The notes: a model not told the origin generated them from the letters alone. 64,000 bases of DNA from Actinomycetales bacterium (GCA_038206105.1 JBBRBF010000004.1:8053-72052); one strand, 5' to 3'. Shown: positions 8,904-57,801, numbered from the stretch's first letter. Made by a program: numbers and translations.

Positions 8904-8934
8904 CCGTACCCGGATCGCATGATCACCGGGGGGG
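8904..8934 (-). repeat. C-rich/GGTGATCA motif copy A
   Basis: Minus strand reads cccccccGGTGATCATGCgatccgggtacgg. It is near-identical to copy B at 20133..20163. Confidence 0.7.
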
Positions 8935-8953
8935 TAGGGGCCGGATACGGGCT

Positions 8954-8985
8954 GCGGACGGGCGGACGGGCGGACGGGCGGCCGG
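8954..8985. repeat. 8-bp microsatellite gcggacgg x3 plus one imperfect unit
   Basis: Direct reading of the intergenic region between divergent genes. Confidence 0.9.
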
Positions 8986-9021
8986 CCGCGAGGCAGGGCG
9001 ACCCGGGTCGACAGGGCGACC

Positions 9022-9027
9022 TAGGGT
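9022..9027 (+). promoter_or_regulatory. Candidate -10 box TAGGGT of a leaderless transcript for 9034..9627
   Basis: Plus strand reads cgaccTAGGGTgagcccGTG. This is the same 11-nt module and 6-nt spacing as on the opposite strand at 8777..8782. Confidence 0.4.
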
Positions 9028-9033
9028 GAGCCC

Positions 9034-9627
9034 GTGCGCCGCGACTCCCCCCGCCCGACCGGCGACGGCCGCGCCGGGTCCCGGCGCGAGGCCGTCGCCA
9101 AGGTGGCGCGCTACACCACGGGCTCCGTGGTCGCGGCGGGCTGCAGCGAGGTCGCGTTCCTGCTGCTGTACGGGGCGTTCGACGCGACCCCGGCGGTCGC
9201 GTCCGTGGTGGGCTGGCTCGCCGGCGCCGTCCCGAACTACTGGCTGAACCGCAGCTGGACGTGGCGGCGCCGCGGCCGGCCCAGCCTGCGGTACGAGCTC
9301 GTGCCGTACGTCGCGATCGTGCTGGGGACGGTGGCGCTGGCGACCGTCGCGACGACGCTGGTGCACCGCGCGCTCGAGGGCGCCGGCGTGGCGGGCGAGG
9401 TACGCCTGCTCGGGGTGGGGGGTACGTTCCTCGCGGTGTACGCAGCGGTCTTCCTGCTGCGCTTCTACCTGCTCGACCAGATGTTCCGCCGCGCACCGTC
9501 CGCGCCCGCGACGGTGGGGGCGACGTCCGCACCCGAGCACCCAGTCCCTGAACCAGCACCTGCACGAGCCCGCGAACCAGACCACGAACCAGCCGAGACC
9601 GGAGCCGACGGAGGACCGCGTGAGTGA
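9034..9627 (+). CDS. GtrA-family membrane protein (polyprenyl-phosphate-sugar translocation family)
   Basis: Four TM helices with the GtrA-like block NYWLNRSWTWRRR. P/E-rich C-terminal tail. Confidence 0.75.
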   Translation: MRRDSPRPTGDGRAGSRREAVAKVARYTTGSVVAAGCSEVAFLLLYGAFDATPAVASVVGWLAGAVPNYWLNRSWTWRRRGRPSLRYELVPYVAIVLGTVALATVATTLVHRALEGAGVAGEVRLLGVGGTFLAVYAAVFLLRFYLLDQMFRRAPSAPATVGATSAPEHPVPEPAPARAREPDHEPAETGADGGPRE

Positions 9628-10351
9628 GACCGAGGACGGCGTCGGCGCCTTCTCCCAGGCGACCGGCAGGAGCCTGGAGGAGGGCCCGGGGCAGTACCAG
9701 CGCCGCTACCGCGCCTACCAGCTGGAGCTCATCGCGCGGCACTGCGGCGACTCGGTGCTGGAGGTGGGGGCCGGGCTGGGCGACTTCGCGAGCCAGCTCA
9801 CCGGGCTGCGCCGGCACGTCGTGACCGACGTGGACCCGGGCTGCGTCGCCCGGATGGCGCAGCGGTTCGCCGACCGCCCGGAGGTCGAGGCCCGCCGGCT
9901 CGACCTCGACGGGCCCCTCGGCGACGTGGGCGAGACGGTCTCGACCGTCGTGGCCATCAACGTGCTGGAGCACATCGAGGACGACAGCGGCACGCTCGCC
10001 TCCCTCGCGCGCCTCGTCGAGCCCGGCGGCCGGGTCGTGCTCTGGGTGCCCGGCTACATGCAGCTCTACGGCGAGTTCGACCGCCGTGTCGGGCACGTGC
10101 GCCGCTACACCCCCGCCACGTTGCGGGCCGCCATCGAGGGCGCCGGGCTGACGCCGTCCGTGGTGCACCCGGTCAACCTGCTCGGCGGCATCGCGTGGTG
10201 GCTGACGGTGCGCCGGGGCGGGGTCGACGCCCCCCGGCCGAGCCTGCTGCGCCTCTATGACGCCGGTGTCGTGCCGGTGACGCGCACGCTGGAGCGTCGG
10301 GTGCGGCCGCCGTTCGGTCAGTCGGTGCTCGGCGTGGCGACCGTCGGCTGA
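9620..10351 (+). CDS. Class I SAM-dependent methyltransferase
   Basis: Motif I VLEVGAGLGDF. GTG start overlaps the GtrA-like stop by 8 nt. Confidence 0.8.
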   Translation: MSETEDGVGAFSQATGRSLEEGPGQYQRRYRAYQLELIARHCGDSVLEVGAGLGDFASQLTGLRRHVVTDVDPGCVARMAQRFADRPEVEARRLDLDGPLGDVGETVSTVVAINVLEHIEDDSGTLASLARLVEPGGRVVLWVPGYMQLYGEFDRRVGHVRRYTPATLRAAIEGAGLTPSVVHPVNLLGGIAWWLTVRRGGVDAPRPSLLRLYDAGVVPVTRTLERRVRPPFGQSVLGVATVG

Positions 10352-11769
10352 CGCCGCAGGGCGGTCCACGCGAGGGCGCCGGCACCGGGCAGCAGCACGA
10401 GCGCCGGCAGCTGGTAGCGCCAGACGAACTGGGTGGTGACGTCGGGCACGAGCAGGAGGCCGGCACCGCACACGGCCAGCAACAGCACGATCGAGCGCAT
10501 CCCCGAGCGCCGGGCGCGCCCCACGCCGGCGGCGGCGACCAGCGCGCCCACGAGGCACGCCAGCAGCACCGGGCCGGGGGTGTACCCGACCCACTGGTAG
10601 GCGGCCACGGCCGTCGCGAACGGCTGGTTCGTGCTCTGCTGCACGCCGCCGTGCTCGGCGAAGGCCGGTCCGGTCCAGCTCGTCGGCTCCGCGTCGACGT
10701 ACGTGCCGAAGCGCCACCTGTAGGCCCGCTCGTACTCGAAGCGGTCGCCGCGCCACACGTCGAAGTTCAGCGCGAAGTCCCGCAGCACCACCGAGACGTA
10801 GTCGCCGGGCTGCTGCCGGACGGCCGCCGCACCGAACTCCGCCATCGCCTCGCTCGGGGTCGTCCCCTCCGGCGGCGCCAGCCGGGGGACGGTGCGCGGG
10901 TCGTGCCACCCGTAGTTCGTCGGGTCCGTCCGCTCGCCGCGCGGCTCCGGGGGGCACAGCACCCGCTGGTAGTCCGGGACGTCGAGGGTCGAGCAGTCGA
11001 CGAACGTGGTGGTACGCATGTACGCGGACTTGCCGCCGATGTCCGTGATCGCGAAGACCCCGTAGGTCTGGTGGTACCACGCGGCGTACGCCCCCACCGG
11101 CAGCACGAACCCCACTGCCAGCACGGCGGCCGTCAGCAGCCGCCCTCGCGTGCCCCTGCCTGCGAGCAGGCAGTACCCGGCACCGGCCAGCACCAGCGGC
11201 ATCCCGACCTGGCGCACCGTGACGGACGTGCCGAGCAGCAGCCCCGCCACCAGCGCCAGCGCCAGCGTCGGACGGCGGCGCCACCCGAGGGCGACGACGC
11301 CCAGGGTCACGACCAGCACGAAGAACGTGTCCGAGAGCGGGGTCGACTCCAGCAGCAGCTGCAGCCCGTCGAACAGCACGGGCAGGGCCGCGAGCGTCGC
11401 GGGCCAGCGGCCCACGCCCCAGCGGCGGAGGAGCACGTAGAGCGCGGTGGCCGTGACCAGACCCAGCAGGTGCTGTGCCACGGCGACCGCCGCGACCGAG
11501 TCGGTGAGCCACGACAGCGGGGTGAGCAGCAGCAGCCCGTACCCGACGGGTCGGTCCGGGTTGGGTGCGAACGAGTCCAGGAAGCGCAGGTACGTGGGCG
11601 AGTCGGTGACCATCAGGGACGGGGTGAACGCCACCGAGACCACGACCCGCAACAGCGCGGCGAGGCCCAGCGCCACCAGGAACGGCCGGTGCCCGGCGAC
11701 CAGGCCACCCCCGGCGCCGTGCGCGCCCGAGGGGGCGCCGGTCCGCCGCAGGGTGGCCGCGGTGCTCAC
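10318..11769 (-). CDS. Polytopic membrane protein, GT-C-like (GT39/GT83-like) glycosyltransferase candidate
   Basis: Last 484 codons of track ORF 10318..13413. GTG start overlaps the upstream stop (GTGA). First-loop motif VTDSPTYLRF, about 9 TM helices and a Cys-containing extracytoplasmic domain. Confidence 0.65.
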   Translation of the reverse strand: MSTAATLRRTGAPSGAHGAGGGLVAGHRPFLVALGLAALLRVVVSVAFTPSLMVTDSPTYLRFLDSFAPNPDRPVGYGLLLLTPLSWLTDSVAAVAVAQHLLGLVTATALYVLLRRWGVGRWPATLAALPVLFDGLQLLLESTPLSDTFFVLVVTLGVVALGWRRRPTLALALVAGLLLGTSVTVRQVGMPLVLAGAGYCLLAGRGTRGRLLTAAVLAVGFVLPVGAYAAWYHQTYGVFAITDIGGKSAYMRTTTFVDCSTLDVPDYQRVLCPPEPRGERTDPTNYGWHDPRTVPRLAPPEGTTPSEAMAEFGAAAVRQQPGDYVSVVLRDFALNFDVWRGDRFEYERAYRWRFGTYVDAEPTSWTGPAFAEHGGVQQSTNQPFATAVAAYQWVGYTPGPVLLACLVGALVAAAGVGRARRSGMRSIVLLLAVCGAGLLLVPDVTTQFVWRYQLPALVLLPGAGALAWTALRRQPTVATPSTD

Positions 11770-13457
11770 GGGGCAGCCGCGCCGGCGCCCTGGACCCGGC
11801 GTCCCTGCCGCACCGGCGCCAGGGCCGGGGCGCTCTCCCGCGCCGGCGCCGGGCACCCCTCCCGCCACCAGGTGCCGAGGACGACGCGCGCGTAGCGCGT
11901 GCCGTAGACGAGGTTGCCGCCCTTCTTGCTGCTGCCGGCGGTGCGCAGGTGCATCGTGCCCGGCACCTCGAGCACCCGGTACCCGCGCGACAGGACGCCG
12001 ATCAGCAGCTCGGAGGACTGGTACTGCGGCTGGTCCAGGGTGACGTCGCCGGTGACGTCGGCCCGCATCGCCCGCAGCCCGAAGGAGGTGTCCGTCAGCC
12101 AGACCCCGGTCAGGGCGGACACGACCCAGGCGAACACGTGGACGCCGACGTGCCGCACCCGGTCCTGGGTGTGCTGGCGCCCGAGGCGGCGCGAGCCGGT
12201 GACGAAGTCGGCCCGCCCGGCCACGACCGGCGCCAGGACGTCGGCGATCTCGCCGGCGTCGTACTGGCCGTCGGCGTCGGTGGTCATGACGTAGCGCGCG
12301 CCGTACGTGCGGGCGACGCGGTACCCCAGCCGCAGCGCCGCGCCCTGCCCGCGGTTCGCCGGGCACGCCACGGCGTACGCGCGGCCGTGGGCGGCGACCG
12401 CGGCCGCCGTCCCGTCGCTGCTGCCGTCGTCCACGACGACGACGTCGAGGGGCAGGCCGCACGCCTGGTGCGGCAGCCGCGAGAGCACCTCCGGCAGCCC
12501 GGCGGCCTCGTTGTACGCGGCGACGACCACGACGACCGGGGCCAGGGCCGGGGTGCCGTGGTCGTCGCGGAAGCGCGCCAGCGCCGCGACGTCGGTCTCG
12601 TCGGGGTCGGGCCGCCTGCCCGACGAGCGCCGCCCGCGGAGCAGCGCCGTGAGCCCGAGCGCCCCCGCGGCCGGCAGCAGCGCCAGCGCGACCGGCGAGT
12701 CGAGCGCGGCCGGCCCCCCGGTCGCCTGGTCCACGACGAGGACGGCGGCCGCGACGGCCGCGACGAGCAGGCTCGGCGCCCGCAGGCCGGAGCGTGCCGC
12801 CCGGCCGAGGCCTGCGGCGGCCAGGAGCGCCAGGACGAGCCCCGCCAGCGGCACGACGTCCGGGACGGTGGGCACCCACGCCGACAGGAGCTCGACACGG
12901 GCGGACGTCGCCGGGCCCGTCCCCACCACCGCCGCGACCCCGGCCAGCGCGACACCGACCGCGGCGGTCACGACGCCCGCGCCACGCCCCCAGCCGAGCA
13001 CGAGGAGGCAGACCGCGAGCAGGGCCGCCAGGTACGTCGCGGGCACCGCGGCGTGCTCGGCGGCGACCTGGTCGGCGTCCACGAGGACGGGCAGGACCGC
13101 CAGGGCCGCGAGCCAGGGCGCCACCCCCCAGCGCAGCACCAGCGCGTAGGCGGCGACGGCTGCCGCCGGCCCGGCCAGGTGCGCGACGGCACCACCGACG
13201 CCCGACGGCGCTCCCGCGGCGTGCGCGAGCAGGCGCAGCACGACGCCGGCGGCGAGGGCGACGACCAGGACGCCGTGCCGCACCAGGAGGGCCCGAGTCC
13301 CGACGGCGCGGGGCCTGACAGCCCGGGGCCCGACAGCGCGCGGCCGGACGGCTCGGGCGCCTGAGGTGGCCGGGGTCGTGCTGACGGGTGTCGCGGGCTC
13401 CGCCGCACGCCACGAGCGGGGTGCGGACGGCGGCCGGGTCCTGCTACGCGCGGGCAT
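11766..13457 (-). CDS. GT2 glycosyltransferase (DPM1/GtrB/ArnC-like polyprenyl-phosphate sugar synthase type) with N-terminal multi-TM module
   Basis: C-terminal GT2 blocks VVVVAAYNEA, VVVDDGSSDGT and TTDADGQYD. The N-terminal ~270 aa are hydrophobic. Start is uncertain (ATG 13457 or GTG 13282). Confidence 0.8.
   Translation of the reverse strand: MPARSRTRPPSAPRSWRAAEPATPVSTTPATSGARAVRPRAVGPRAVRPRAVGTRALLVRHGVLVVALAAGVVLRLLAHAAGAPSGVGGAVAHLAGPAAAVAAYALVLRWGVAPWLAALAVLPVLVDADQVAAEHAAVPATYLAALLAVCLLVLGWGRGAGVVTAAVGVALAGVAAVVGTGPATSARVELLSAWVPTVPDVVPLAGLVLALLAAAGLGRAARSGLRAPSLLVAAVAAAVLVVDQATGGPAALDSPVALALLPAAGALGLTALLRGRRSSGRRPDPDETDVAALARFRDDHGTPALAPVVVVVAAYNEAAGLPEVLSRLPHQACGLPLDVVVVDDGSSDGTAAAVAAHGRAYAVACPANRGQGAALRLGYRVARTYGARYVMTTDADGQYDAGEIADVLAPVVAGRADFVTGSRRLGRQHTQDRVRHVGVHVFAWVVSALTGVWLTDTSFGLRAMRADVTGDVTLDQPQYQSSELLIGVLSRGYRVLEVPGTMHLRTAGSSKKGGNLVYGTRYARVVLGTWWREGCPAPARESAPALAPVRQGRRVQGAGAAAP
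13299..13358 (-). repeat. Imperfect 15-bp tandem repeat x4 (encodes PRAVx pentapeptide repeats)
   Basis: Units cccgacggcgcgggg / cctgacagcccgggg / cccgacagcgcgcgg / ccggacggctcgggc. They lie in the putative N-terminal tail of the GT2 gene. Confidence 0.7.
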
Positions 13458-14400
13458 CGACCCGCGCCGCCCCGGCGACCGCCGGGTCGAAGTCGGCCCA
13501 GGCGCCGCGCAGCCCCTCGTCCAGGGCCACCGTGGGCTCCCAGCCGCGGCTGCGGGCCCGGGAGACGTCCACGACGACGGCGGGCATCTCGCCGGGCTTG
13601 GGGGGCACGCGTCCGGCCGTGACCGGCTGGCCGACGACCTCCCCGGCGACCCGCACGATCTCGTTCACCGTGTACGACCGGCCGCCGCCGATGATCACCG
13701 GTCCGGTAGGCCAGCCCTGGACCGCCAGCACCATCGCCCGGGCCACGTCCGTGACGTGCACGAGGTCGCGGCGCTGCTCGCCGTCCCCGTACACCTCGAT
13801 CCGCCCATCGGCCGCCGCCGCCCGCATCAGCCGCGGCACCAGGCTGTCCTTGTGCTGCATGCCGGGCCCGTAGACGTTCGACAGCCGCAGGCACGGCGTC
13901 CGCATCCCGTAGGCGCCCGCGTAGCCGTGCAGCAGCATCTCCCCGGCGGCCTTCGTCGCGCCGTAGGGGGTCAGGGGAGCCAGCGGGAGGTCCTCCACGA
14001 TGGTCCGGGTACCGACGTCGCCGACGACCGCGTTCGTGGACGCCAGCACGAAGGTGCCGACGCCCCGCTCGCGAGCGAGCTCGAGCAGGCCCGCCGTCAT
14101 CTCGACGTTGGTGCGGTGCACCTGGGCGGGCCGCTCCACCGAGCCGAGCACCGACGTCGCCGCGGCCAGGTGCACGACCGCGTCGAGACCGGCGACGACG
14201 GCGCGCTCGCGCACCGCGGGGTCGCACAGGTCGCCGACCACGCCCCGCACGTCGTCGGAGCCGACCAGGTCGGCGCCCACGACGGCGTAGCCGGCGTCCT
14301 GCAGCGCCGCGACGACGTGCCGGCCGACGAAGCCCGACGCGCCGGTGACGAGGACCTGCGGGGCGGCGGGCACCGCGGCGTCCGCCGCACCCGCGCTCAC
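13444..14400 (-). CDS. NAD-dependent epimerase/dehydratase (GalE-like)
   Basis: VLVTGASGFVG Rossmann motif and YGATKAAGE (YxxxK). GTG start overlaps the upstream stop (GTGA). Only the last 318 codons of track ORF 13444..15093 are real. Confidence 0.85.
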   Translation of the reverse strand: MSAGAADAAVPAAPQVLVTGASGFVGRHVVAALQDAGYAVVGADLVGSDDVRGVVGDLCDPAVRERAVVAGLDAVVHLAAATSVLGSVERPAQVHRTNVEMTAGLLELARERGVGTFVLASTNAVVGDVGTRTIVEDLPLAPLTPYGATKAAGEMLLHGYAGAYGMRTPCLRLSNVYGPGMQHKDSLVPRLMRAAAADGRIEVYGDGEQRRDLVHVTDVARAMVLAVQGWPTGPVIIGGGRSYTVNEIVRVAGEVVGQPVTAGRVPPKPGEMPAVVVDVSRARSRGWEPTVALDEGLRGAWADFDPAVAGAARVDARA

Positions 14401-15566: not shown

Positions 15567-15625
15567 GCGAACGTGCTCCTTCCGGGCGTGCTCCGAGATG
15601 AATGCCTGCGCCCTACGTGGAGGCG

Positions 15626-15631
15626 ATGCTA
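15626..15631 (-). promoter_or_regulatory. Candidate -10 box TAGCAT for the sqd-type operon
   Basis: TANNNT hexamer about 60 nt upstream of ATG 15566 on the minus strand. Confidence 0.3.
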
Positions 15632-15648
15632 ACCACCACCCCTGCGGC

Positions 15649-20065: not shown

Positions 20066-20132
20066 TCCTGCAGCATCACCCACCGCGGCCGGTCCTGCCT
20101 CTCCGCCCTGCGGCGATCCGCGATCAGGCACA

Positions 20133-20163
20133 CCCCTCCGGTGATCATGCACATCGGGTACGG
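20133..20163 (+). repeat. C-rich/GGTGATCA motif copy B
   Basis: Plus strand reads cccctccGGTGATCATGCACatcgggtacgg. It forms a 15/17 inverted repeat with the first 32-bp unit downstream. Confidence 0.7.
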
Positions 20164-20188
20164 CCGGCACGGGGGGCCCACACGCGGC

Positions 20189-20316
20189 ACGATGTCCTTG
20201 ATCACCATGGGGACGGCGGCACGACGTCCTTGATCACCATGGGGGCGGGGGCACGACGTCCTTGATCACCATGGGGGCGGGGGCACGACGTCCTTGATCA
20301 CCATGGGGGCGGGGGC
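20189..20316. repeat. 32-bp tandem repeat x4 (three identical units plus one 29/32 variant)
   Basis: Unit acgacgtccttgatcaccatgggggcgggggc at 20221, 20253 and 20285. The variant unit is at 20189. Lies in the divergent intergenic region. Confidence 0.95.
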
Positions 20317-20411
20317 GGCCTCGACCACCGGGGGTGGCGCGCGTCGGGGGGACGGGGGGCGGCCGGGTAGCGTCGGCGGGACACCCGCTCCCCCACGCAC
20401 CCGGAGAACCG

Positions 20412-22284: not shown

Positions 22285-22760
22285 CTACCGGTGACCGCGT
22301 CCGTTGCGGTTCGAGAACTTCGGTTGGCTCTGCACGTTGAGCTCGTCGAAGTCGACCCGTGCGGCCTTCTCGAACCGCCGTCCGCGCAGCTCGAGCACGT
22401 CGAAGCCCTTGACGATGTCGGAGCTGTAGACGTAGCCGTTGTACCAGTACGCCGACCAGGTGCCGCCCACGACGAGCTCGGTGTCGCCGAGCGTGCCGCG
22501 CTCCCAGTAGCCGAGCTCGCGCGGGTTGCGCGTGTTCGTGAAGTCCCACACCGAGACCAGACCCCGCCCTGGTACCAGGACTGCACCATCACGTCCCGGC
22601 CCGGAACCGGGACCAGGGAGCCGTTGTGGGCGACGCAGTTCTCGGTGGACGCGTTCTCGCGCGGGATCTTGTAGTAGCTGCGCTTCACGAGCTCGCGCCT
22701 GTCCCGCCGGCCGACGATGTCGTAGATGCCGTTGGCGCCGCGCGTGTCCGCGATCTCCGG
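22285..22760 (-). pseudogene. LVIVD-repeat (beta-propeller) protein remnant, 5'-truncated and frameshifted
   Basis: Homology runs in one frame (NCVAHNGSLVPVPGRDVMVQSWYQGG). It then continues in another frame (SVWDFTNTRNPRELGYWERG...YWYNGYVYSSD). The shift at about 22550-22565 looks like a small gtctg duplication. Confidence 0.6.
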
Positions 22761-25207: not shown

Positions 25208-25240
25208 CCGGGTCCCACCCGCATCGCGGGGGGGACCCGG
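25208..25240 (-). other. Very stable hairpin (15-bp stem with one mismatch, 3-nt loop) in the 5' region of the DUF4331 operon
   Basis: ccgggtcccacccgc atc gcgggggggacccgg. Confidence 0.6.
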
Positions 25241-25365
25241 GAGCAGCGTGTGCCCACAGACCCGCCCCGTCAAGTAGAACGGGTGAACCCGCGGCCTCTG
25301 TCGGAGCGCGAGCGGGCGGATGAGCCGGGTCACGGGAGCGGGTGGACGACGGCGGCGGGGCGCGT

Positions 25366-25394
25366 GGGACCCGGAGTGCATGATCACCGCGGAG
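25366..25394 (-). repeat. C-rich/GGTGATCA motif copy C
   Basis: Minus strand reads ctccgcGGTGATCATGCACtccgggtccc. Confidence 0.6.
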
Positions 25395-25411
25395 CGGTGG
25401 GGACGTGCGAA

Positions 25412-25445
25412 GGCCCCCGGCCTCCGCATGGGAGGGCCGGGGGCC
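25412..25445 (-). terminator. Hairpin terminator candidate downstream of clpC
   Basis: ggcccccggcctcc gcat gggagggccgggggcc, 40 nt after the clpC stop. No U-tract, which is common in high-GC actinobacteria. Confidence 0.5.
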
Positions 25446-25484
25446 GCCGTGTCGTGCCGGGTGTTGCTGGTCGGTCGCTGCTGG

Positions 25485-28654: not shown

Positions 28655-28933
28655 GAATCTGCCCACCAGCTCGTCGTCGGGGAAATGCGAGAGAAAGACG
28701 GAGAAAACCTCCGGCCGTCCACAGGGGCGGCCTCATGATTATGAGAGGCCGCGATCACCGGCGTCAATTCGAGTGCTATTCGGTGTGTCCGATTCCGTGA
28801 CGCCGGTCGCATTTCGCGACCACGCGCTCGCTGCACGTCACCGCGGGAAAGCCAGAAGGCGGAAAGCCTGCCGGCCGTGACCGAGGAGAACTGAGAACCG
28901 ACGGGAACGGCGAGAACCGGCGGGAGGGGTCCG

Positions 28934-36935: not shown

Positions 36936-37016
36936 GGTGGCAGAGCCGGCGCAGGAGGGTGCGCCGGCCGGACGCGGGCGAGGTCTCCACCGACAGGCGG
37001 GTGCGACAGTTGCCGT

Positions 37017-48354: not shown

Positions 48355-48364
48355 GTCGGGTCCC

Positions 48365-49471
48365 TCAGCCGTGCACGCGCCGCACCCAGCTCCGCGGGGC
48401 GGCGATCTCCTCGGGCGACGGCAGGCACTCGGGCCCGGTCCAGACCTGGTTCAGCCCCTCCCAGCCGACGTCGTCCACCACGCCCCGCACGAACCGGGCA
48501 CCGTCGGCGTACTGCCGCATCTTCGCCTCCAGGCCGAGGAGGCGGCGGAGCACCTGGTCGAGCGCCCCCCGGCCGGCGCGCCGGCGCCCGAACCGGCGCC
48601 GGATCTCGGCCACGGTCGGGATCACCTGCGGGCCGACCTCGTCCATCACCACGTCGGCATGACCCTCGAGCAGCGACATCACCGCGGTGGTCTCTGCGAG
48701 TGCCCGGCGCTGCTCGGGGGTCTGCAACAGGTCGATCACCCCCGCCCCGTCGGTCCCCCGGAGGGCGTCCGGCAGGTTCCGCAGGGCGGCGGCGAGCCGC
48801 TCGACGGTCGCCGACGGGTCACTGACGAGGTCGTCGGCGAGCGCCCGCACCTGCCCGACGAGGTGGTCGCGCAACCACGGCGTCGCCGCGAACTGCACCC
48901 GGTGGGTCTCCTCGTGCAGGCACACCCACAGCCTGAAGTCGCGGGGCTCGACCGCCAGCTCGCGCTCGACGTGCACCACGTTCGGCGCCACGAGGAGCAG
49001 GCGGCCCGCCGGCCCGGTCGCAGCGTCGTCGTCGAGCCCGGCGAAGACGTCGTACTGCCCGAGCACGCGGGAGGCGAGGAACGCCAGCAGGGAGCCGACC
49101 TCGGCGCCGGTGACGCGGCTGCCGACCGCGGCGGCGACGGCACCCGGCGTGCTGTCGCGCGAGCGCCAGGCCTTCTCCACGCTGGGCGCGAGCACGGCGC
49201 GGAACCCCGCGATGTTGGCCCGGGACCAGCCGGTCCGGTCCACCACGAGCAGCTCGCTGCCGTTCGGGGTGTCGAGCAGCGCCGTCCGGGCGACGTGGCC
49301 GGTCGACTGGTCGGCGAACGCCCGGAGCTCGCCGACCACCTGCTCGGCCTCGTCGCGGGAGACCACCGGCCCCGGCCGGACCAGGCGGGCGGCAGTCCGC
49401 TCCGCGAGGTCCCAGTCGACGACCTGGTCCACGGGGGGCACGGGGGCCTCGGGGGGTGCGCTCGTCCTCAC
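48365..49471 (-). CDS. Zinc-dependent metalloprotease (DUF2342-like)
   Basis: HEETH zinc motif. GTG 49471. Tail of track ORF 48365..50167. Confidence 0.7.
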
Positions 49472-49505
49472 CGGCTCACCGTACGGGTGGCCTGCCCCGG
49501 TCACC

Positions 49506-50960
49506 TCAGCGGCAGCCGCACCGGGCGAGCGCCGCGGCCACCTCGTCGGCCGCCTGCCGGGCCGCGACCGTGACGGGGACGGCGTCGGCCAGGACCGCGA
49601 ACGCCAGGTAGTCGCCGTCGGCGGTGACGAGCGTCCCGGCCAGGCTGGTGGTGCCGGTGAGCGTGCCGGTCTTCGCCCGCACCACGCCCGCGCCCGCCGC
49701 CGCGGGGCCGGTGAACCGGTCGGCCAGGGTGCCGGTGAGGCCGCCGACGGGCAGCCCGGTGAGCAGGCCGCGCAGGTCGGGCCGGGTCCCCGCCAGCACG
49801 AGGACGTCGGTGAGCGTGGACGCCCGCACGGAGCTGCCGTCCGCGAGGCCGCTGCCGTCGGCGAGGACGGCGCCGCCGGTGTCGACGCCCAGCGCCCGCA
49901 CCGCGGCGAGCACGGCCCGGCCCGAGCCGGCGAACGTCGCGGGCTCCCCGGTCCGGCGGGCGACGACGTGGGCGAGGGAGTCCGCGACGAGGTTGTCGCT
50001 GGTCCGCAGCATGTGCGCGACGACGGCAGCCGCCGGCGCCGAGCGCACCTCCGCGAGCACCGGGGCACCGGGTGGCGGAGCGGCGCGGGTGACGCGGCCG
50101 GCGACGTCCACGCCGCGGTCGGCGAGCAGGGCCGCGAACCGGGTCGCGGCGGCCAGCGCGGGGTCACCGGACCGTGGGGCGAACCGGCCGCTGCCGGTGC
50201 GCCCGGCGTCCACGGCCAGCGGCGCGAGCGGCGCGGTGAAGCCGGCGGCGACCTCGCTCGGGGTCACGCCGGGGGCGAGGCCCTGGCGGGCGAACAGTCC
50301 GTCGTCCAGGCGCACCCGGACCGGTCCCGCCGCTCCGGCGTCGTCCTGCTCGGCCTCGTCGACCGGGGTGGCCAGGGCCGCGGCGGTCGCGGCGGCGAGG
50401 TCGCCGAGGCCTGCCCGCTCACCGTCCGGGTCGGCGGCCGTGGTCGCCGCTCCGCCGGTCAGCAGCACGTCGCCCCCGGCGACGAGCACGACCTCGCCGT
50501 CGCAGGCGCCGCGCACGACACGCGTGGCGAGGCGGCCCTCGGGGCCGAGCACGGACAGGGCCGCCGCCGCGGTGAGCAGCTTCGCCGTCGACGCCGGCTC
50601 CTGGGCCGCCTGCGTCCCCCGCCGGTAGAGCACGTCGCCGGTGACCCCGGCTACGACGTGAACGCCGACCCTGCCGCCGAGGTCGGGGTCGGCGACGAGC
50701 GGGTCGAGCCGCCGCGCCAGTGCCCGGGCGGCGGGGGCAGCGGTGGTGACCGGCTCCAGCACCGCCGTCGCGGGGACGCCCGGTGCCCGGGCGCCGGCGG
50801 CCGGCGGGAACGGCGGCGCGGTCGGCCGGGGGGCGTCCGTCAGGGGCCCGGGGACCACGTCGGCGACGTCGGCGACGCCGTACCCGACGAGGGTCGCGGC
50901 GGCGAGCGCGACGGCGGCGGCCGTGCGTGCCCCTCGGACCACCCCGCCTCCCCTGCTCAC
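49506..50960 (-). CDS. dacB: D-alanyl-D-alanine carboxypeptidase/endopeptidase (PBP4 family)
   Basis: SxxK motif PASTAKLL. N-terminal anchor [21 protein letters not shown] 50960. Confidence 0.8.
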
Positions 50961-51053
50961 CGCTGCCGGGCCGCCGGGGTCGATCACCGGCCCCCCGGTG
51001 GGCGAGACTATCCCCGCCCGTCCCACCGTCACCGCCGTCGTCAGGAGCACAGC

Positions 51054-51545
51054 GTGGAGTTCGACGTCACGATCGAGATCCCCAAGGGTCAGCGCAACAA
51101 GTACGAGATGGACCACGCCTCCGGGCGGATCAAGCTCGACCGGACGCTGTTCACCGCGACGCGCTACCCGGCCGACTACGGGTTCGTCGACGACACGCTC
51201 GGCGAGGACGGCGACCCGCTGGACGCGCTCGTGCTGCTCGACGAGCCGACCTTCCCCGGGTGCCTGATCCGGTGCCGCGCGATCGGAATGTTCAAGATGC
51301 GGGACGAGGCCGGCGGCGACGACAAGCTGATGTGCCTGCCCACCGGGGACCCGCGGATGGACCACATCCAGGACCTGCCCGACATCGGCGAGTTCTACCG
51401 GCTGGAGATCCAGCACTTCTTCGAGACGTACAAGGACCTGGAGCCGGGCAAGTCCGTGGAGGGCGCCCACTGGGTCGGCCGCGAAGAGGCCGAGGCCGAG
51501 ATCGAGGCCTCCTACGCGCGGGCGAAGGAGAACGGCGGGCACTGA
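51054..51545 (+). CDS. ppa: Inorganic pyrophosphatase (family I)
   Basis: GTG 51054 with [35 protein letters not shown] blocks. Tail of track ORF 48687..51545. Confidence 0.9.
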
Positions 51546-51574
51546 CCGGCCGGACGCCCGCCGCCGGCCCCTCG

Positions 51575-51602
51575 ACGCGTTACCCGCGCGCGGGTAACGC
51601 GT
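51575..51602. terminator. 28-bp perfect palindrome, bidirectional terminator candidate
   Basis: acgcgttacccgcg|cgcgggtaacgcgt between convergent ppa and 51580..52980. It overlaps the latter's stop codon. Confidence 0.6.
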
Positions 51603-52980
51603 GAGGCCGGGGCGGGACGCCGGCCAGGTCCGTGTCGGCCAGAGCCGCCTGCACGATGCCCGCCAGCTCGCCGCGCGTCGGGCCGGCGTCGACGGGCGTG
51701 CGCCACCCGGACGCGTACACAGCGCGAGCGAGCGGCTCGACCGGGTCGAGGCAGGAGGGCGGCTCGAGCATGGTCACGTAGCCCGGCGTCGCCGCGTCGA
51801 TCCGCGGGTCCACCTGCGCGGCAGCCAGCACGAGGTCGGACGGCAGCCTGCGACCCAGGTCGACGTCCCCGCCCTGCCAGCGGCGGACGAGGTCGCCGTC
51901 CATGTGCACGTGGTCCCTCACCCACGGCAGCATCGCGCCCTGGCACCAGGCGTCGAACGGCTCGCCCACGACGGCGGGGTCAGCCCCGGTGTCGAACAGG
52001 TGGAGCAGGTGGCGGACCTGCATGAACGTCGTGGCCACGCCGCGTCCGAACGTCGGTGTGGTCGTCGCAACCGCGTCCCCGACGCTGACGAGGCCGGGGA
52101 CGACGGCGCGTCCGTCCGCCGCCTGCTGACCGCGGTAGACGTTGCGCAGCGGCCCCCCGGGCAGCACGTCAGTGACCGGCTCTGCGCGTGCCTCGTCGGT
52201 CCACTCGGCGAGCCCGGGTATGGCCCGGCAGGCCGCCTCGAACGCCACCCGGTGCCGCAGGCCCGTGAGCACCGCGTCGGAGACCGGCCGCACCAGCAGC
52301 ACCGAGAAGTGGCCGCGTTCGTGCCGGAAGACGATCGCCTGGTACCCGTCGAGGTCGGCCTGCCAGGCCAGCGGGTTGGCCATCGGCCCGGGCGCGGCGC
52401 CGGGGCGCAGCCGGTACTGCCGGTCGACGTACGCCATCCCGCAGGGGCCGCCGTCCGACGCCGGAGCGCGCAGGTCCTCGAGCGCCCGACCCGACCGACC
52501 AGAGGCGTCGACGACGAGATCGGCCTCCACGTCGGCGCCGCCGACGACGACCCCGACCGCGCGGCCACGGTGGGTCCTCACCCGGTCGACGTGCCCGCGG
52601 CGCACCAGCAGGCTCGGGACGTCGCGCGATGCCTCCCGAAGGGCCCGTTCGAACGTCTCGCGACGCGACAGGTGCCCGGCCTCGATAGACCCGAGGCCGG
52701 GGACGTGGAACCGGACCGGCTCGGCGCCGGCGGCCAGCCACGCGTCGAGGGCTGCGGGCCACTCCTGCCGCAGGACGTGGCCCACCTGCGGCCGGAAGCC
52801 GTGTGCGTGGTGGAACTGCATCACCCCACGGCGGGCCCAGCGGCCATGTCGCGGCGGTCCGGGGTCGCGGTCCACGGCGACGACGGTGTGGCCCCTCGCG
52901 GCGAGGGCTCGCCCCACGAGCAGGCCGGCCGGTCCGGCCCCGACCACCGCGACGCGCAATGGAACCACCTCCGCCCGCAC
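51580..52980 (-). CDS. FAD-dependent oxidoreductase/monooxygenase
   Basis: N-terminal VAVVGAGPAGLLVGRALAARGH dinucleotide fold. 466 aa. Confidence 0.75.
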   Translation of the reverse strand: MRAEVVPLRVAVVGAGPAGLLVGRALAARGHTVVAVDRDPGPPRHGRWARRGVMQFHHAHGFRPQVGHVLRQEWPAALDAWLAAGAEPVRFHVPGLGSIEAGHLSRRETFERALREASRDVPSLLVRRGHVDRVRTHRGRAVGVVVGGADVEADLVVDASGRSGRALEDLRAPASDGGPCGMAYVDRQYRLRPGAAPGPMANPLAWQADLDGYQAIVFRHERGHFSVLLVRPVSDAVLTGLRHRVAFEAACRAIPGLAEWTDEARAEPVTDVLPGGPLRNVYRGQQAADGRAVVPGLVSVGDAVATTTPTFGRGVATTFMQVRHLLHLFDTGADPAVVGEPFDAWCQGAMLPWVRDHVHMDGDLVRRWQGGDVDLGRRLPSDLVLAAAQVDPRIDAATPGYVTMLEPPSCLDPVEPLARAVYASGWRTPVDAGPTRGELAGIVQAALADTDLAGVPPRPHALPARG

Positions 52981-53137
52981 CGATCGTGTGGTGCGGCACC
53001 CAGGGTGCGCCCTGCGGGCGCGGGGTCCCCAGGGGTTTTCGTGTCGCCGGCCCGGGCAGGACCAGCCGGCCCGCGCGAGCGGGTGGACCCCCGAGCCACA
53101 CCCGCCCCGGCCTGCCGCACGCCGGCCGGGAGGTGCG

Positions 53138-54385
53138 TCACCCGTCGAGGGGGGCGGGCCGCTCGTCGGCGTGGGCGATGTGGGCGAGCTGTCGCCAGAT
53201 CATCACCACGAACAGCGCGGATCCCGCGAAGGCGAACCAGAACGGCGCCGTCACGCCGAAGCGCTGGGCGAGCAGGCCGCCGACCGTCGACCCGAGCACG
53301 AGGCCGCCGAAGACGCCGACGAGGTTGACGCTGCCCACGCGTCCCTGCAGCGCGCGGGGCACCGCCCGCTGCCGCACCGTCACCGACGTCGTCCCCCACA
53401 CGAAGGCGTGGACGCCGAAGACGAAGAAGACGGGCATCGCGATCCAGGGGCTCGTCGTGAGCGCCAGCGCCAGGTGCGTCAGCGTCTCGATCACCAGCCC
53501 GACGCGCATCAGGTCGCCCAGGCTGACCCGACGGGTGATCCAGCCGTAGCAGCCTGTCCCGACCAGACCGCCGGCGGCGATCACCGTCATCACCAGGCCG
53601 AAGCCGACCTCGCCGAGACCCAGCCGTCGCGTCGCATACAGCACGAGCACGGACCACGCCGCGCCGAACGTGATGTTGAAGCTGAAGATCGTCAGCACGA
53701 GGGTCCGCACCGCTGCGTGCCGCCGCACCCAGCCGAAGCCCTCGGCGACGCTCCGCCGCCAACCCGCGTGGCTGCCGGCGTCGTGCTCGTCGCGCGGGAG
53801 GACGACGCGCGTCACCAGCACCGCGCCGAGGGCGACGACGACCGCCTGTGCACCGAAGGCCCAGGCGGCACCGGCGGTGAACAGTGCGGCGCCCAGCGGC
53901 GGGCCCGCCATCTGGTTCATCGTGATGAAGCCGGTCATCAGGCGGGAGTTGGCGACCGCCAGGTCCTCACGCGCCACGAGCATCGGCAGCAGGGTCTGCG
54001 AGCTGTTGTCCGCGAAAACCTCCGCCGTACCGAGCACGAACAAGGCCGTCAGCGCCATCGCGATCGAGACGCGGTCGGTGAGGACCGCGAGCGTCAGGAC
54101 GATGAGCACCCCGGCCCGGGCGATGTCGACGACCACGACGATCAGCCGCCGGTCCAGCCGGTCGGTGAGAGCACCGGCCACCAGCCCGAACAGCAGCGGG
54201 GGCAGCCACTGCACGGTCGCCGCGAGCGCCACCAGGAAGGCGTCCCGGGTGAGCGAGGCGACCAGCAGCGGCCCGGCGGCGAGGGCGATGCCGTCCCCGA
54301 GGTTGGTCGTCCACGACGACGCCAGCAGCCACCGGAACGCGACGCCGAGGCGCGAGGGCGCGACGACGTCTGCGATGCGGCCCAC
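53138..54385 (-). CDS. MFS transporter
   Basis: 415 aa, 12 TM helices, GALTDRLDRR loop motif. Confidence 0.85.
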   Translation of the reverse strand: MGRIADVVAPSRLGVAFRWLLASSWTTNLGDGIALAAGPLLVASLTRDAFLVALAATVQWLPPLLFGLVAGALTDRLDRRLIVVVVDIARAGVLIVLTLAVLTDRVSIAMALTALFVLGTAEVFADNSSQTLLPMLVAREDLAVANSRLMTGFITMNQMAGPPLGAALFTAGAAWAFGAQAVVVALGAVLVTRVVLPRDEHDAGSHAGWRRSVAEGFGWVRRHAAVRTLVLTIFSFNITFGAAWSVLVLYATRRLGLGEVGFGLVMTVIAAGGLVGTGCYGWITRRVSLGDLMRVGLVIETLTHLALALTTSPWIAMPVFFVFGVHAFVWGTTSVTVRQRAVPRALQGRVGSVNLVGVFGGLVLGSTVGGLLAQRFGVTAPFWFAFAGSALFVVMIWRQLAHIAHADERPAPLDG

Positions 54386-54429
54386 GGGTCAGCGAGCCTA
54401 GAGGTGCGGCGGCTGGCACAATCGCGGGC

Positions 54430-54945
54430 GTGGACGCCCCGCTGGTCGTGCCCTTCGACGGGCGCTCGCCTGTGACCGACCCCGCTGCCTGGGTGGCGCC
54501 GGGCGCCACCCTCGTCGGCGACGTGAACCTGGGGCCGGAGGCGAGCCTCTGGTTCGGCGCGGTCCTGCGCGGCGACGGTGACCGGATCACCGTCGGCGCC
54601 CGCTCGAACGTGCAGGACGGCTGTGTCGGGCACGCCGACCCCGGCGTCCCGCTGACTGTCGGGACGGGGGTGTCGGTGGGGCACCGCGCGGTGCTGCACG
54701 GGTGCACCGTCGAGGACGACGTCCTCGTCGGGATGGGGGCGGTGGTGCTGAACGGCGCGCGGGTCGGCGCGGGGTCGCTGGTCGCCGCCGGCGCCGTCGT
54801 CCTGGAGAACACGCAGGTGCCGCCGGGATCGCTCGTCGCCGGGACGCCCGCCCGGGTGCGACGCGAGCTCACCGGCGACGAGGTGGACCGGTTGCGGCGC
54901 AACGCCGAGCACTACGTCGCGCTGGCCGCCCGGTACCGGGGCTGA
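54430..54945 (+). CDS. Gamma carbonic anhydrase-family protein (hexapeptide repeat)
   Basis: Left-handed beta-helix repeats with a His triad context (NVQDGCVGH, VGHRAVLHGC). Confidence 0.85.
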   Translation: MDAPLVVPFDGRSPVTDPAAWVAPGATLVGDVNLGPEASLWFGAVLRGDGDRITVGARSNVQDGCVGHADPGVPLTVGTGVSVGHRAVLHGCTVEDDVLVGMGAVVLNGARVGAGSLVAAGAVVLENTQVPPGSLVAGTPARVRRELTGDEVDRLRRNAEHYVALAARYRG

Positions 54946-54989
54946 GCCCACTCACGACGGCGACCGGCTCCGCGAGCACGCACCGCGGG

Positions 54990-55282
54990 CTAGCGGGCCA
55001 GGTGTGACCTCGATCCTCGGCGTGTCACCGGTGCTGCCGACCCGGACGACGTCTCGCTGCACCTGTGCCGGGTTCCGCACATCAACCCGCGCACGACCCC
55101 TCGTGGCCGTGTACCTGCACGTCGCCGACGCCGACGACCTGCCCACACAGTGGTCCGCCGCCGGGGTCGACGGACGCCACCACGCCCCGGTCGACACCGA
55201 CTACGGGCTGCGCGAGGGGGCGTACGTGGACCCCGACGGCAACCTGCTGCGGTACGGGTCAGCGCTGCGGGCAGCGACCTGA
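54990..55282 (+). pseudogene. VOC/bleomycin-resistance-like remnant (truncated, probably frameshifted)
   Basis: C-terminal half is recognisable (AVYLHVADADDL...DTDYGLREGAYVDPDGNLLRYG). An upstream DDVSLHL-like strand is in another frame. No credible N-terminus. Confidence 0.35.
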
Positions 55283-55287
55283 CGCAC

Positions 55288-55881
55288 TCACTCCCGAACC
55301 GGTCGGTAGGTGCAGACCAGGACGCCGGTGCCGGCCGTGGTGGCGGAGACGAGCTCGAGCGGGCGCGGCCGGCCGTCGGCCGGGAACACCCGCTTGCCGC
55401 CGCCGAGCAGGACCGGCTCGACCATCAACCGGTACCCGTCGACGAGGTCGTGCTCGACGAGCTGCGCCGCGAGCGAGGCGCTGCCCATCACCTGCACCAC
55501 GTCACCGTCCCGCGAGCGCAGGTCGCGCACCGCGCCGATCGCGTCATCCGCCGGCAGCAGCACCGAGCCCGACCAGGTGAGGTCACCATCGCCGAGGGTG
55601 CGCGACGCCACGTACTTCGGCAGCGCGTTCATCCGGTCGGCGAACGGGTCACCGGCCCGGCCGGGCCACGCAGCGGCCATCGCCTGCCAGGTGCGGCGAC
55701 CGAACAGCAGCGCATCCGTAGCGCTCAGGAGCGTGTCGATCGCCGAACCCATCGTCCCCGGGTCGAAGTACGGCATGGACCACCCGCCGTGGGCGAAGCC
55801 GCCCTCGGTGTCCTCCTCGGCCCCGCCGGGTGCCTGCACCACGCCGTCCAGGCTCATGAAGTCACTCAGGACGATCCGCAT
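55288..55881 (-). CDS. Dihydrofolate reductase-family protein (RibD C-terminal domain type)
   Basis: MRIVLSDFMSLDGVVQAPGG start. GAGGAG RBS. Confidence 0.8.
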   Translation of the reverse strand: MRIVLSDFMSLDGVVQAPGGAEEDTEGGFAHGGWSMPYFDPGTMGSAIDTLLSATDALLFGRRTWQAMAAAWPGRAGDPFADRMNALPKYVASRTLGDGDLTWSGSVLLPADDAIGAVRDLRSRDGDVVQVMGSASLAAQLVEHDLVDGYRLMVEPVLLGGGKRVFPADGRPRPLELVSATTAGTGVLVCTYRPVRE

Positions 55882-56162
55882 CGTTGCTCCTCACGTCGTC
55901 GTGTGCGCGATCCGTCCGGTAGACCGGTGCCGCCCGGCCGACTCATCGGCGCTGACCACCACTGTGCACGTCGCCCGGATGGGCGCCGACGGGGGTCGAG
56001 GGCCTCGCCGCGGGACGTCGTGGGACGTGGCGGCACGTCGCGGCACGCTTCCGATGACGCCCGCCGCCTCGTTATCAGTTCGGCTCTTTTCCGATAACCA
56101 CGGGAGGCGCTGATGCCGGCGGCGGGGTCCAGCTGGCCGTCGACCTCGTACGAGAGGCTGCC

Positions 56163-56672
56163 GTGGACCACGCCCTGCTCCATGCGCTGCTGCGGGGCAA
56201 GGGCCTGACGCGGACGGTGACGGTACCTGTGTCCGCGGGCCTGCTCACCGACGTCGACGCCTACTTCGCCTCGCTCGACGCCTACCGCGCCGGCGAGCCC
56301 GCCGTCATCGTCGAGCTGCTCGCGAACGCGTCGTTCAGGGCCATCGGCAACAGCCGCACCCTCGTCGGCGAGCTGCACCGTGTTCGCGAGTCCTGGAACG
56401 AGCGGGTGAGGGCCCGCAGGGACGCCCGCACGTGGAGGATCGCCGACCTCGTCCTCCGTCATCCCGTGGTCGACGCGCCGCTGCTCGCGCGCGAGCTGGG
56501 CATCCCCGCCAGCAACGTCTACCGGTCTCTTGCACCGCTGCTGGAGGCCGACGTGCTGAAGGAGGCCAGCGACCGCCGCCGCAAACGGACGTGGCGGTCG
56601 AACGAAGTGATCGCCCCCCTGGACGCCCTCGCGGCGCGAGCCGGCCGCCGCATGGCTCCCCAGGGAACCTGA
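56163..56672 (+). pseudogene. Fic-family protein remnant (C-terminal part only)
   Basis: Begins right after where the HPFxxGNGR motif should be (ALLHALLRGKGLTRTVTVPVSAGLLTD) and continues into a C-terminal winged-helix region. No Fic core upstream. Confidence 0.5.
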
Positions 56673-56733
56673 CCGCCGTGCTCGGGCAGCCGGACCAGGC
56701 CTCGGCTGACGGCCTCCCCGCCGACGCGTGGCG

Positions 56734-57068
56734 TCACGGCTTCGGAGGCAGCGAGCGGACGTGCCTGACGCCGTGGCCCACCCAGCGCCGAAGCTCCTCG
56801 TCGCTGCCGAGGGCCTCGGCAGCGACGCCGAGCCATCCCGTCATCGTGCGGTCACGCATCTCGAACGGTCGGACGCCGGGCTCCGTGGTCAGCCGGTCGG
56901 CGTCGGCCGGATCGACACGCAGCATCAACCCGCCCTGGCTGCTGGCGCTGACCGCCATGTGCCCGCCGATCAGGAACGCGTGCCCGCGAACATGCGCTTC
57001 TCCGTCAGGCCGGGTTCACCCTGCACGACAGCCCGGATCCGGTCCGCGAGCTCGACGTCGTACGTCAT
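56734..57068 (-). pseudogene. TfoX N-terminal-domain protein, frameshifted
   Basis: MTYDVELADRIRAVV..GLTEKRMFAG is in one frame. FLIGGHMAVSASSQGGLMLRV continues in another frame. The shift is at about 56965-56975. Confidence 0.6.
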
Positions 57069-57251
57069 GCGCGAAGTGTCTCGCAGGCTCACCTGCGTCC
57101 TGCGACCACAGGCCGTCCAGCCGTCCCATCGGCCCGGTCGAGAGGCCCACCCGGACCTGGACGACCGTGGCAGTCTTCGGTGACGAGCGCTGCTCCGTTG
57201 CGCCGCAGCGCTCGTCAACGACGCCAACGACCCCGTGAAAGGAACCGCCCC

Positions 57252-57731
57252 ATGTCCGTCGTCTCTGCTCCGGCTCCCATGACCACCTCGACCGGCGCCT
57301 AGCTGCCCCTGGTCACCCTCCCGCAGACCGAGCTGCTGAGCGTGAACCAGAAGGACATCCCGGTGATCAAGGACGCGCTGGGGCCCGGGGTGCACTTCCA
57401 GCCGCTGCGCCTGGACATGGAGCTGGGCGAGTGGGTGCCCTGGCACTACCTGGAGTACCCCGACCAGCCGCAGACCGCCGGCTCCTACCTGTTCGAGCCG
57501 GGGTCCTCCGTGCACACGCTCGTCTGCCCCGACTCCAACACCGAGGGCACCGTCGTGCTGTTCCGCGTGCACGGCGCGAACATCAACGTCAACGAGGACG
57601 GCACCGACCACTCCATCCTCGACGTGGCCCTGATCCGGCACCTGACCGACGCCTTGTCCGAGGCCCAGGGCCTCGGCGAGGTCACCTACGTCGGGGGCGG
57701 CGCTGCCGGCCTCACGACCGCGGGCACCTGA
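57252..57731 (+). pseudogene. 2,4'-dihydroxyacetophenone dioxygenase-like cupin with in-frame TAG
   Basis: ATG 57252 with GAAAGGA RBS and an in-frame TAG at 57300..57302. Family-like sequence continues immediately after it (LPLVTLPQTELLSVNQKDIPVIKDALGPGVH...YLEYPDQPQTAGSYLFEPGSSVHT). Confidence 0.55.
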
Positions 57732-57771
57732 GGCGCGCGCCCGCGCGGGTGGCCGGGCGATCGATGCGACC

Positions 57772-57801
57772 GGACCTGTCGTGCATGATCACCGAGGGGG
57801 G
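57772..57801 (-). repeat. C-rich/GGTGATCA motif copy D
   Basis: Minus strand reads cccccctcGGTGATCATGCACgacaggtcc. Confidence 0.6.

Follow-up and report, generated by a model that had tools for sequence, protein, structure and literature searches.

How should a short sequence be understood that recurs ten times in a stretch of high-GC DNA and lies almost entirely outside genes? This question is raised by 64,000 nucleotides (nt) from an Actinomycetales bacterium (GCA_038206105.1 JBBRBF010000004.1:8053-72052), the whole of which is called here the window, in which the octamer GGTGATCA is found at 8920 (-), 13692 (-), 20140 (+), 20199 (-), 20231 (-), 20263 (-), 20295 (-), 25381 (-), 57362 (+) and 57786 (-). 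The sequence-only reading that preceded this analysis had counted ten copies where about one would be expected, and all ten positions hold, the number expected being 0.92 ± 1.0 and none of 100 shuffles reaching 10; the GC content, put there at about 73% by eye, measures 0.70-0.78, slightly higher than that estimate. The octamer marks a real, lineage-specific family of ~30-nt intergenic repeats in an uncultured actinobacterium. On balance, it is best taken as the repeat unit of a set of short interspersed intergenic repeats belonging to one branch of the Kineosporiaceae, similar in kind to REPINs (hairpin-forming doublets of repetitive extragenic palindromes, REPs) and to miniature inverted-repeat transposable elements (MITEs).

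The discreteness of the family was assessed with a 31-nt weight matrix built from its copies, with which both strands (128 kb) were scored against shuffles. Eight sites reach 35.9-42.6 bits, the next best site 12.6 bits, and the shuffles ~10-12 bits at most; the top eight match the matrix by construction, and the informative part is the gap below them. These eight members are the solo copies A, B, C and D and four 32-bp tandem units inverted beside B, all of which read as they had been aligned earlier. The claim that eight of the ten octamers are intergenic is also confirmed, all eight ~31-nt units lying in non-coding DNA, as expected of REPs, which are short (20-40 bp) extragenic units. Counted by independent loci, five of five are non-coding, for which the chance is ~1e-5 at ~10% non-coding DNA, a proportion summed over the gene table of the sister-species contig described below. 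The other two octamers lie in genes as ordinary codons and were ruled out as family members: that at 13692 (-) is read P-V-I-I-G inside a NAD-epimerase gene (13444-14394, minus; Pfam E 2e-58), and that at 57362 (+) is read P-V-I-K-D in a cupin open reading frame (ORF), the site and its flanks scoring just 6.4 bits on the 31-nt matrix. The sequence-only reading had taken a 14-nt match at this second site as the inverted partner of copy D within a decayed cupin gene, in an arrangement mirroring that of copy B and the tandem units. However, scans of sequence collections show that many unrelated high-GC genes commonly use GGTGATCA(A/T)G(G/C)AC as codons for V-I-K/M-D/H. Because this string commonly encodes V-I-K-D, the 14-mer is a coding coincidence and not a partner of copy D, and the proposed mirror arrangement has to be abandoned; the cupin gene is not decayed either, its ORF being intact with 99% GC at third codon positions.

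Each unit is ~30 nt long and is composed of a C-rich lead, the invariant GGTGATCA, the sequence (A/T)G(C/G)AC and a looser tail, with likeness among the copies ending at ~31 nt. The 30 nt upstream of the units contain 50% C and 26% G, against 37.6% C and 37.3% G in the window overall. At the B cluster, copy B (cccctccGGTGATCATGCACATCGGGTAcgg; 20133..20163, plus; 42.6 bits) is the left arm of an inverted doublet, whose true inverted partner is the innermost tandem unit, unit 1 (tccccatGGTGATCAAGGACATCGTGCCgcg; 20183..20213, minus; 38.6 bits). When B is compared with its partner arm at 20190-20206, 15/17 positions agree across a 33-nt spacer, a value as high being found in 0/300 shuffles, and the two units have ACATCG in common; the inverted orientation of the tandem units relative to B, proposed earlier, is borne out by this pairing. 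Units 2-4 (cccccatGGTGATCAAGGACGTCGTGCC; 20215-20245, 20247-20277 and 20279-20309, minus; 35.9-37.9 bits) repeat the right arm, C-rich lead included, head to tail every 32 bp, and Tandem Repeats Finder delimits the array at 20186-20316 (period 32, 4.1 copies, 96% matches).

Related genomes were then compared. The ClpC homologues place the window in the Kineosporiaceae, those of Quadrisphaera, Pseudokineococcus, Thalassiella and Kineococcus being 90-92% identical and those of two assemblies 99-100% identical. A 99% ClpC match gave a sister-species contig (L293; ENA ERZ25039476, contig_58694), which is syntenic with window 16943-37994 at ~86-91% DNA identity and allows three loci, B, C and E, to be compared. 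At B, alignment and BLAST indicate that a ~205-nt block (20112..20316), comprising copy B, the spacer, the array and 21 nt on the left, is absent from the sister species. The BLAST segments break at 20115/20332, and the indel has the same limits as the motif cluster. Both species keep the hydrolase and EamA orthologues on its two sides, the gap between these genes measuring 151 nt in the sister species (annotated gene ends) versus 346 nt in the window (starts re-assigned to 20065 and 20412). At E, the sister species carries an intact unit (cGGTGATCATGCACCTCGGGGAC; L293 1017-1047; 22.1 bits) between DUF1684 and bPH_2 genes, and alignment to it locates in the window a decayed remnant (CGGTG-GAG-ACCTCG; 36979..36992, minus). 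At C, a unit of 36.8 bits stands at the orthologous site after clpC, accompanied in the sister species by a decayed partner arm (p ~0.03). The core of copy C is identical between the two species at 13/13 positions, and CGGGT at 5/5, in a surrounding spacer that is 52-73% identical, which against a background of 60% corresponds to 0.6^18 ~ 1e-4. One of the three comparable loci (C) is retained, and copies are gained, lost and decaying between these sister species, the absence of the B block from one and the decay of E in the other giving the presence/absence polymorphism at orthologous sites that is typical of MITEs.

Two further observations concern this comparison. The leftmost 21 nt of the B indel (20112-20132; GGCGATCCGCGATCAGGCACA) contain GCGATCC twice in a near-repeat; the same heptamer is found in copy A and in the arms of the more distant relative L294 described below, and these 21 nt may be the relic of an older unit. 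Moreover, ~1.6 kb of the sister-species contig (L293 15257-16904), spanning the gap between a DUF305/DUF4142 gene and a gene of 537 amino acids together with the first two-thirds of the latter, has no BLAST counterpart in the window, where the flanking alignments abut at 22760/22762; it represents a difference in gene content, or a strong divergence, beside the DUF4331 operon.

In the more distant relative (L294; assembly ENA ERZ23497145), whose ClpC is 93% identical, two elements have been found, each starting 7 nt past a stop codon, those of clpC and disA. The clpC element forms a perfect 23-bp stem (-66 kcal/mol, z -8.9) and the disA element has a z of -5.1, the stems being ~22-23 bp long. 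On both sides the arms begin with (G)GTGATCATG(C/G)GATCC, an exact match to the first 16 nt of copy A; this 16-nt sequence, GGTGATCATGCGATCC, is thus identical to the 5' arm of the disA hairpin, and the inner sequence is different. The inner stem of the L294 elements, CGCCACC..GGTGGCG, also occurs in the ordinary terminators that follow clpC or disA in other genera, and for this reason the GGTGATCATG arm behaves as a module joined to differing interiors. Hairpins of this kind after clpC or disA, with the inner stem CGCCACC-loop-GGTGGCG and differing outer stems, are found at L294 12522, L294 20774, L295 20172, L298 8952 and L300 12579, and may constitute a second, wider family in genera of the Kineosporiaceae.

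Two pattern scans extended the search. A loose pattern, CNCCNNGGTGATCAWGSACNNCG, run over a genome collection, yielded among the matches listed almost exclusively conserved coding V-I-K/M-D, Kineococcus L028 alone being useful, and a metagenome scan with GGTGATCATGCACNNCGGGT gave 37 matches, about the level of chance plus coding V-I-M-H, of which only the soil contig L126 looks related. The Kineococcus element follows a stop codon within a convergent gap and combines a C-rich lead with a tandem of three 16-nt GGTGATCAAGCACTTC units that finishes in a hairpin; that of L126, 11 nt past a stop codon, consists of ccctcc..GGTGATCATGCACCTCGGGTC and a perfect 12-nt inverted arm (z -3.4). Two inverted units separated by a short spacer and able to form one hairpin, as in REPINs, are seen in B with unit 1, in L126 and in both L294 copies, the distance between arms varying from ~4-5 nt to 40 nt, and the singlets are A, C, D and E of the sister species. 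Per DNA read, there are 5 loci in the 64-kb window, 2 in 22.5 kb of L293 and 2 in 22.5 kb of L294. No copy was found in the clpC loci of seven other relatives, namely Quadrisphaera, Pseudokineococcus, Thalassiella and Kineococcus gypseus (22 kb each) and three metagenome contigs (5-14 kb), and the distribution among genera is patchy. Neither the B locus nor the L294 hairpin had a significant BLAST match among plasmids or phages, two pattern scans of viral contigs returned no family-like matches, and a literal sequence search of the literature retrieved primers only. Other repeats were noticed in Thalassiella azotivora: units starting GCGCACCTTTCCACC, which occur three times beyond the clpC terminator at spacings of 42 and 83 nt (L300 12670-12810), and, in a convergent gap, a long palindrome that encloses a perfect one of 20 nt, CTGGGGGTGATCACCCCCAG (L300 4777-4796).

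The window copies occupy a core chromosomal region (radA, disA, clpC, lsr2, lysS, panC, folP, ftsH, tilS, dacB) in mixed contexts, which include divergent promoter gaps (A, B and E), a site after a terminator (C) and convergent gaps (D, as in L028 and L126). The placement of A and B in divergent promoter regions agrees with what had been stated earlier. Copy A (cccccccGGTGATCATGCGATCCGGGTAcgg; 8904..8934, minus; 37.1 bits) is midway between the divergent genes for a DUF6077 protein (start 8770, minus) and GtrA (start 9034, plus), ~100-165 nt from either start, and no inverted partner arm was found for it. Both these genes present TAGGGT-N6-GTG (8768-8782, minus; 9022-9036, plus), the layout of leaderless actinobacterial transcripts. 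Immediately upstream of copy A, an 8-nt tandem repeat (8954-8985; plus strand, four units of GCGGACGG; motif strand, CCGTCCGC) lengthens the C-rich lead. Copy B is flanked by the genes for an alpha/beta hydrolase (ATG 20065, minus) and an EamA transporter (ATG 20412), the latter provided with the Shine-Dalgarno sequence GGAGAA and a -10-like TAGCGT at 20368.

Copy C (gctccgcGGTGATCATGCACTCCGGGTCcca; 25365..25395, minus; 37.2 bits), for which no partner arm was found in the window, had been described as following the clpC terminator and preceding the DUF4331 operon, and the distances measured are in accordance: it is 17 nt past the terminator hairpin (25412-25448), and a TTGACG -35-like box (25268-25273) belonging to the operon formed by a small ORF and the DUF4331 gene follows ~90 nt downstream of it. 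The clpC hairpin itself (25412-25448, minus), which has no U-tract, is retained in the sister species with several stem and loop substitutions, the stem being apparently preserved. The leader that separates the TTGACG box from the small ORF preceding DUF4331 contains a GC-rich stem-loop (GGGTCCCCCCCGCGATGCGGGTGGGACCC; 25210-25238, minus). Copy D (ccccctcGGTGATCATGCACGACAGGTCcgg; 57770..57800, minus; 39.6 bits), also with no partner arm found, is contained in the 95 nt that separate the stop codons of two convergent genes, one for an aldo-keto reductase (57827-58840, minus) and the other for the cupin (57303-57731, plus), and the tract past the reductase stop codon is strongly C-rich. The neighbouring genes (DUF6077/GtrA, hydrolase/EamA, DUF4331, reductase/cupin) are functionally unrelated.

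The sequence-only reading had left the choice among an operator, a small structured RNA and a REP/MITE-like element. Doublets, turnover between species, decay, copies in convergent gaps, and hairpins after stop codons in a relative all favour the last of these, the operator being poorly supported and the RNA unsupported, with a folding z of ~0 for the solo copies and no Rfam match. The complete form of the element would be a doublet of units in opposing orientation, ~4-5 to 40 nt apart, which as a DNA cruciform or as RNA could form a hairpin with the base GGTGATCATG/CATGATCACC. The doublets are mostly located just past stop codons, where they probably serve as terminator or 3'-end-stabilising hairpins. 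The solo units A, C and D would be half-elements whose partner has been lost, and a slippage-type amplification of one arm may have produced the four 32-bp units at B, a kind of tandem arrangement that recurs in Kineococcus L028. Spread or homogenisation of the copies could be due to a transposase encoded at another site, to gene conversion, or to a host protein binding the GGTGATCATG core; the family is discrete and non-coding, with a doublet architecture, an indel at B and decay at E, and it may be mobile.

Taking into account the known systems, the family resembles the REPs and REPINs of Proteobacteria, which go with REP-associated tyrosine transposases (RAYTs), and the bacterial interspersed mosaic elements of E. 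coli, in having extragenic units of 20-40 nt that appear as singlets, hairpin-forming inverted dimers and tandem clusters, the same spectrum that has been described for REPs (PMC3733652). As in those systems, abundance differs between close relatives and copies are often placed at gene 3' ends (PMC3733652, PMC3337134), and REP singlets have likewise been read as remnants of inverted doublets (PMC3337134). However, REPs end in a GTAG or CGTC tag (PMC3733652), and here no GTAG is present and CGTC is only internal, in type-2 units (GGACGTCGTG); the single unit is not the imperfect palindrome of a REP, showing a weak CGGTG..CAnCG dyad in some copies only; and the host is an actinobacterium, a phylum that is not mentioned in the REP survey (PMC3733652). 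The family is thus not one of REPs proper, failing on the palindromy of the unit and on the terminal tag, and agrees with REPINs and MITEs in architecture and polymorphism.

With MITEs such as Correia, ERIC and Nezha, it shares an intergenic location, terminal inverted arms (B, L126, L294) around a short variable interior, and a ~200-nt block present or absent between sister species, whereas no target-site duplication can be demonstrated, no parent insertion sequence with the same ends has been found, and most window copies are single arms. The intergenic, head-to-tail, near-identical units (4 x 32 bp at B, 3 x 16 nt in L028) also recall the variable-number tandem repeats formed by mycobacterial interspersed repetitive units (MIRUs). 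MIRUs are 46-101 bp long, are located inside operons and contain small ORFs that overlap the flanking genes; here the 32-bp period is indivisible by three, and divergent genes flank the array.

Several results weigh against the REPIN/MITE-like interpretation. Unlike classical REPs, the single unit is a poor palindrome (fold z ~0), and no transposase, RAYT/IS200-type or other, was detected among the ~55 window ORFs scanned with Pfam, a further difference from REP/REPIN systems, nor did the gene tables of the related loci contain any transposase family. No convincing target-site duplication exists at the B indel, GCGGC being present at both junctions but trivial at 75% GC, and the indel may be an insertion in the one species or a deletion in the other. 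The number of copies in the source genome is known for 64 kb only (5 loci). Moreover, L028 and L126 were retrieved by exact-pattern scans, so that their core matches by construction and only the additional features (C-rich lead, inverted arm, tandem units) are independent. Finally, the perfect core of copy C in a diverged spacer suggests that a solo unit is subject to selection or homogenisation, which pure decay would not predict.

This last point also sustains the best-surviving alternative, according to which the asymmetric GGTGATCA(T/A)G(C/G)AC would be an operator or binding site for one protein, a regulator or of nucleoid type, with the 32-bp units forming a cooperative array upstream of the EamA gene. 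In its favour, the sequence is conserved and the structure is not; A, B, C and the E unit of the sister species are each upstream of at least one gene, and the 32-bp period, three helical turns, would put the sites of the array on one face of the helix. However, the distances to the nearest starts range from about -1 to about -200 in no common register, D is placed between convergent genes, and both L294 copies, L126 and L028 are at 3' ends. The genes adjacent to the copies form no functional set, and no regulator gene adjoins any of them. The spacing of the doublet arms varies from ~4-5 nt to 40 nt, and the B cluster is absent and E decayed across the sister species although the flanking genes are kept. 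A regulon should display a consistent promoter position, a coherent gene set and retention at orthologous sites, and none of these is observed, with 1/3 comparable loci retained. An operator is therefore unlikely, and a protein-binding role keeps a minor share of the probability because the conserved core of copy C argues most strongly that single units are acted upon, by a protein or by gene conversion.

Some specific binding sites and polar motifs were also considered and rejected. A SigB-type promoter with GGGTAC as its -10 lacks a -35 at the right spacing, and an ECF41/SigJ-like TGTCACA-N16-CGTC on the reverse strand of the array and a DnaA box were dropped on spacing or sequence. The motif offers GTG-N6-CAC where a CRP-like site needs GTG-N8-CAC, and parS, dif and KOPS/Chi-type polar motifs occur outside intergenic DNA as well. 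Scanning all four loci for consensus promoters and terminators gave nothing.

Returning to the REPIN/MITE-like interpretation, a more speculative extension, to which we give a rather low probability, is that the family represents a REPIN-like palindromic system of Actinobacteria with no recognisable RAYT, with a predicted protein recognising the GGTGATCATG core, either a new mobilising or homogenising enzyme or a host factor acting on double-stranded RNA or DNA at gene ends. Such a system would explain both the conserved core of copy C and the repeated amplification of one arm in the window and in Kineococcus.

A still less probable proposal is that the element is a transcript 3'-end module, made up of a C-rich tract resembling a Rho-loading site and a hairpin whose base (GGUGAUCAUG/CAUGAUCACC) would be read by a termination or RNA-processing factor, as has been proposed for TRIT. 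TRIT is a sequence-conserved palindromic terminator motif of Mycobacterium, with 147 copies in M. tuberculosis, reported as restricted to that genus and centred ~8 nt inside the coding end (PMC3152330), and it provides the precedent for sequence-conserved terminator hairpins in Actinobacteria (PMC3152330). The likeness, established by description only, lies in conserved palindromic hairpins tied to stop codons, and it is true of the L294 and L126 copies, which start 7 nt past the clpC and disA stops and 11 nt past the stop, respectively, and have very stable stems; D and L028 also follow stop codons in gene orientation, the 30 nt upstream of the units are enriched in C, and the inner stem of the L294 hairpins is shared with ordinary clpC/disA terminators of other Kineosporiaceae. 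Nevertheless, window copies are mostly half-elements away from stop codons, and four of the five window loci are unable to form the hairpin, A, C and D being without a partner arm. Copies A and B are between divergent genes, where no transcript end would be expected, copy C comes after an already existing conserved terminator hairpin, and there is no U-tract. A pure terminator module is insufficient, since A, B and the hairpin-less singlets stay unexplained by it.

It is very improbable that the motif is a cis-acting structured RNA, such as a riboswitch or leader, or the ribosome-binding site and start codon of small ORFs. The sequence GGTGATC is the 3' part of the extended Shine-Dalgarno sequence GGAGGTGATC; as RNA, GGUGAUC is complementary to the 16S rRNA tail GAUCACC, and type-1 copies have an ATG at the expected spacing. 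However, Rfam gives no match, either at the gathering score or at a relaxed E-value, and the solo copies have no structure in common and no significant fold against shuffles (z -0.5 to +0.7). The putative peptides (MHIGYG..., MRSGYG...) are alike only in the motif and differ in length, type-2 units have no ATG at that position, and the genes beside A appear leaderless, with starts ~100-135 nt from the motif.

Chance or a compositional artefact, such as codon-driven enrichment of GGTGATCA, can be practically dismissed: the octamer and its 13-mer extension are common in high-GC coding DNA, and 2/10 window matches are of that kind, but the eight non-coding copies share ~20-31 aligned positions, exceed the background by >20 bits and have relatives in L293 and L294, and the count of ten octamers is reached in 0/100 shuffles.

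Two other features of the window deserve mention. The lsr2 promoter (28738-28767, minus; TTGACG, 18 nt, CATAAT) holds in its spacer CCGGTGATC, which by matrix score is not a family member, and in the corresponding spacer of the sister species (L293 9205-9234, plus) a perfect palindrome, CGGTGATCACCG, is present. The long ORF at 48687-51545 (plus), with high third-position GC, is a shadow ORF: it has no homologues, and the Zincin_2 and Peptidase_S13 proteins of this region are encoded on the opposite strand.

A lineage-specific repeat family is in itself an expected kind of genome feature. Small dispersed repeats have been well studied in Proteobacteria and are barely catalogued in high-GC Actinobacteria, and annotators should be cautious not to take such motifs for regulons; the 32-bp array, for its part, would offer a practical marker for strain typing. 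In high-GC Actinobacteria, canonical U-tract terminators are scarce, and conserved hairpins like TRIT hint at termination or RNA-processing factors that are still unknown. A second actinobacterial family, unrelated to TRIT, in which hairpin doublets at stop codons occur together with decaying singlets and arms amplified in tandem, would be a tractable comparative system.

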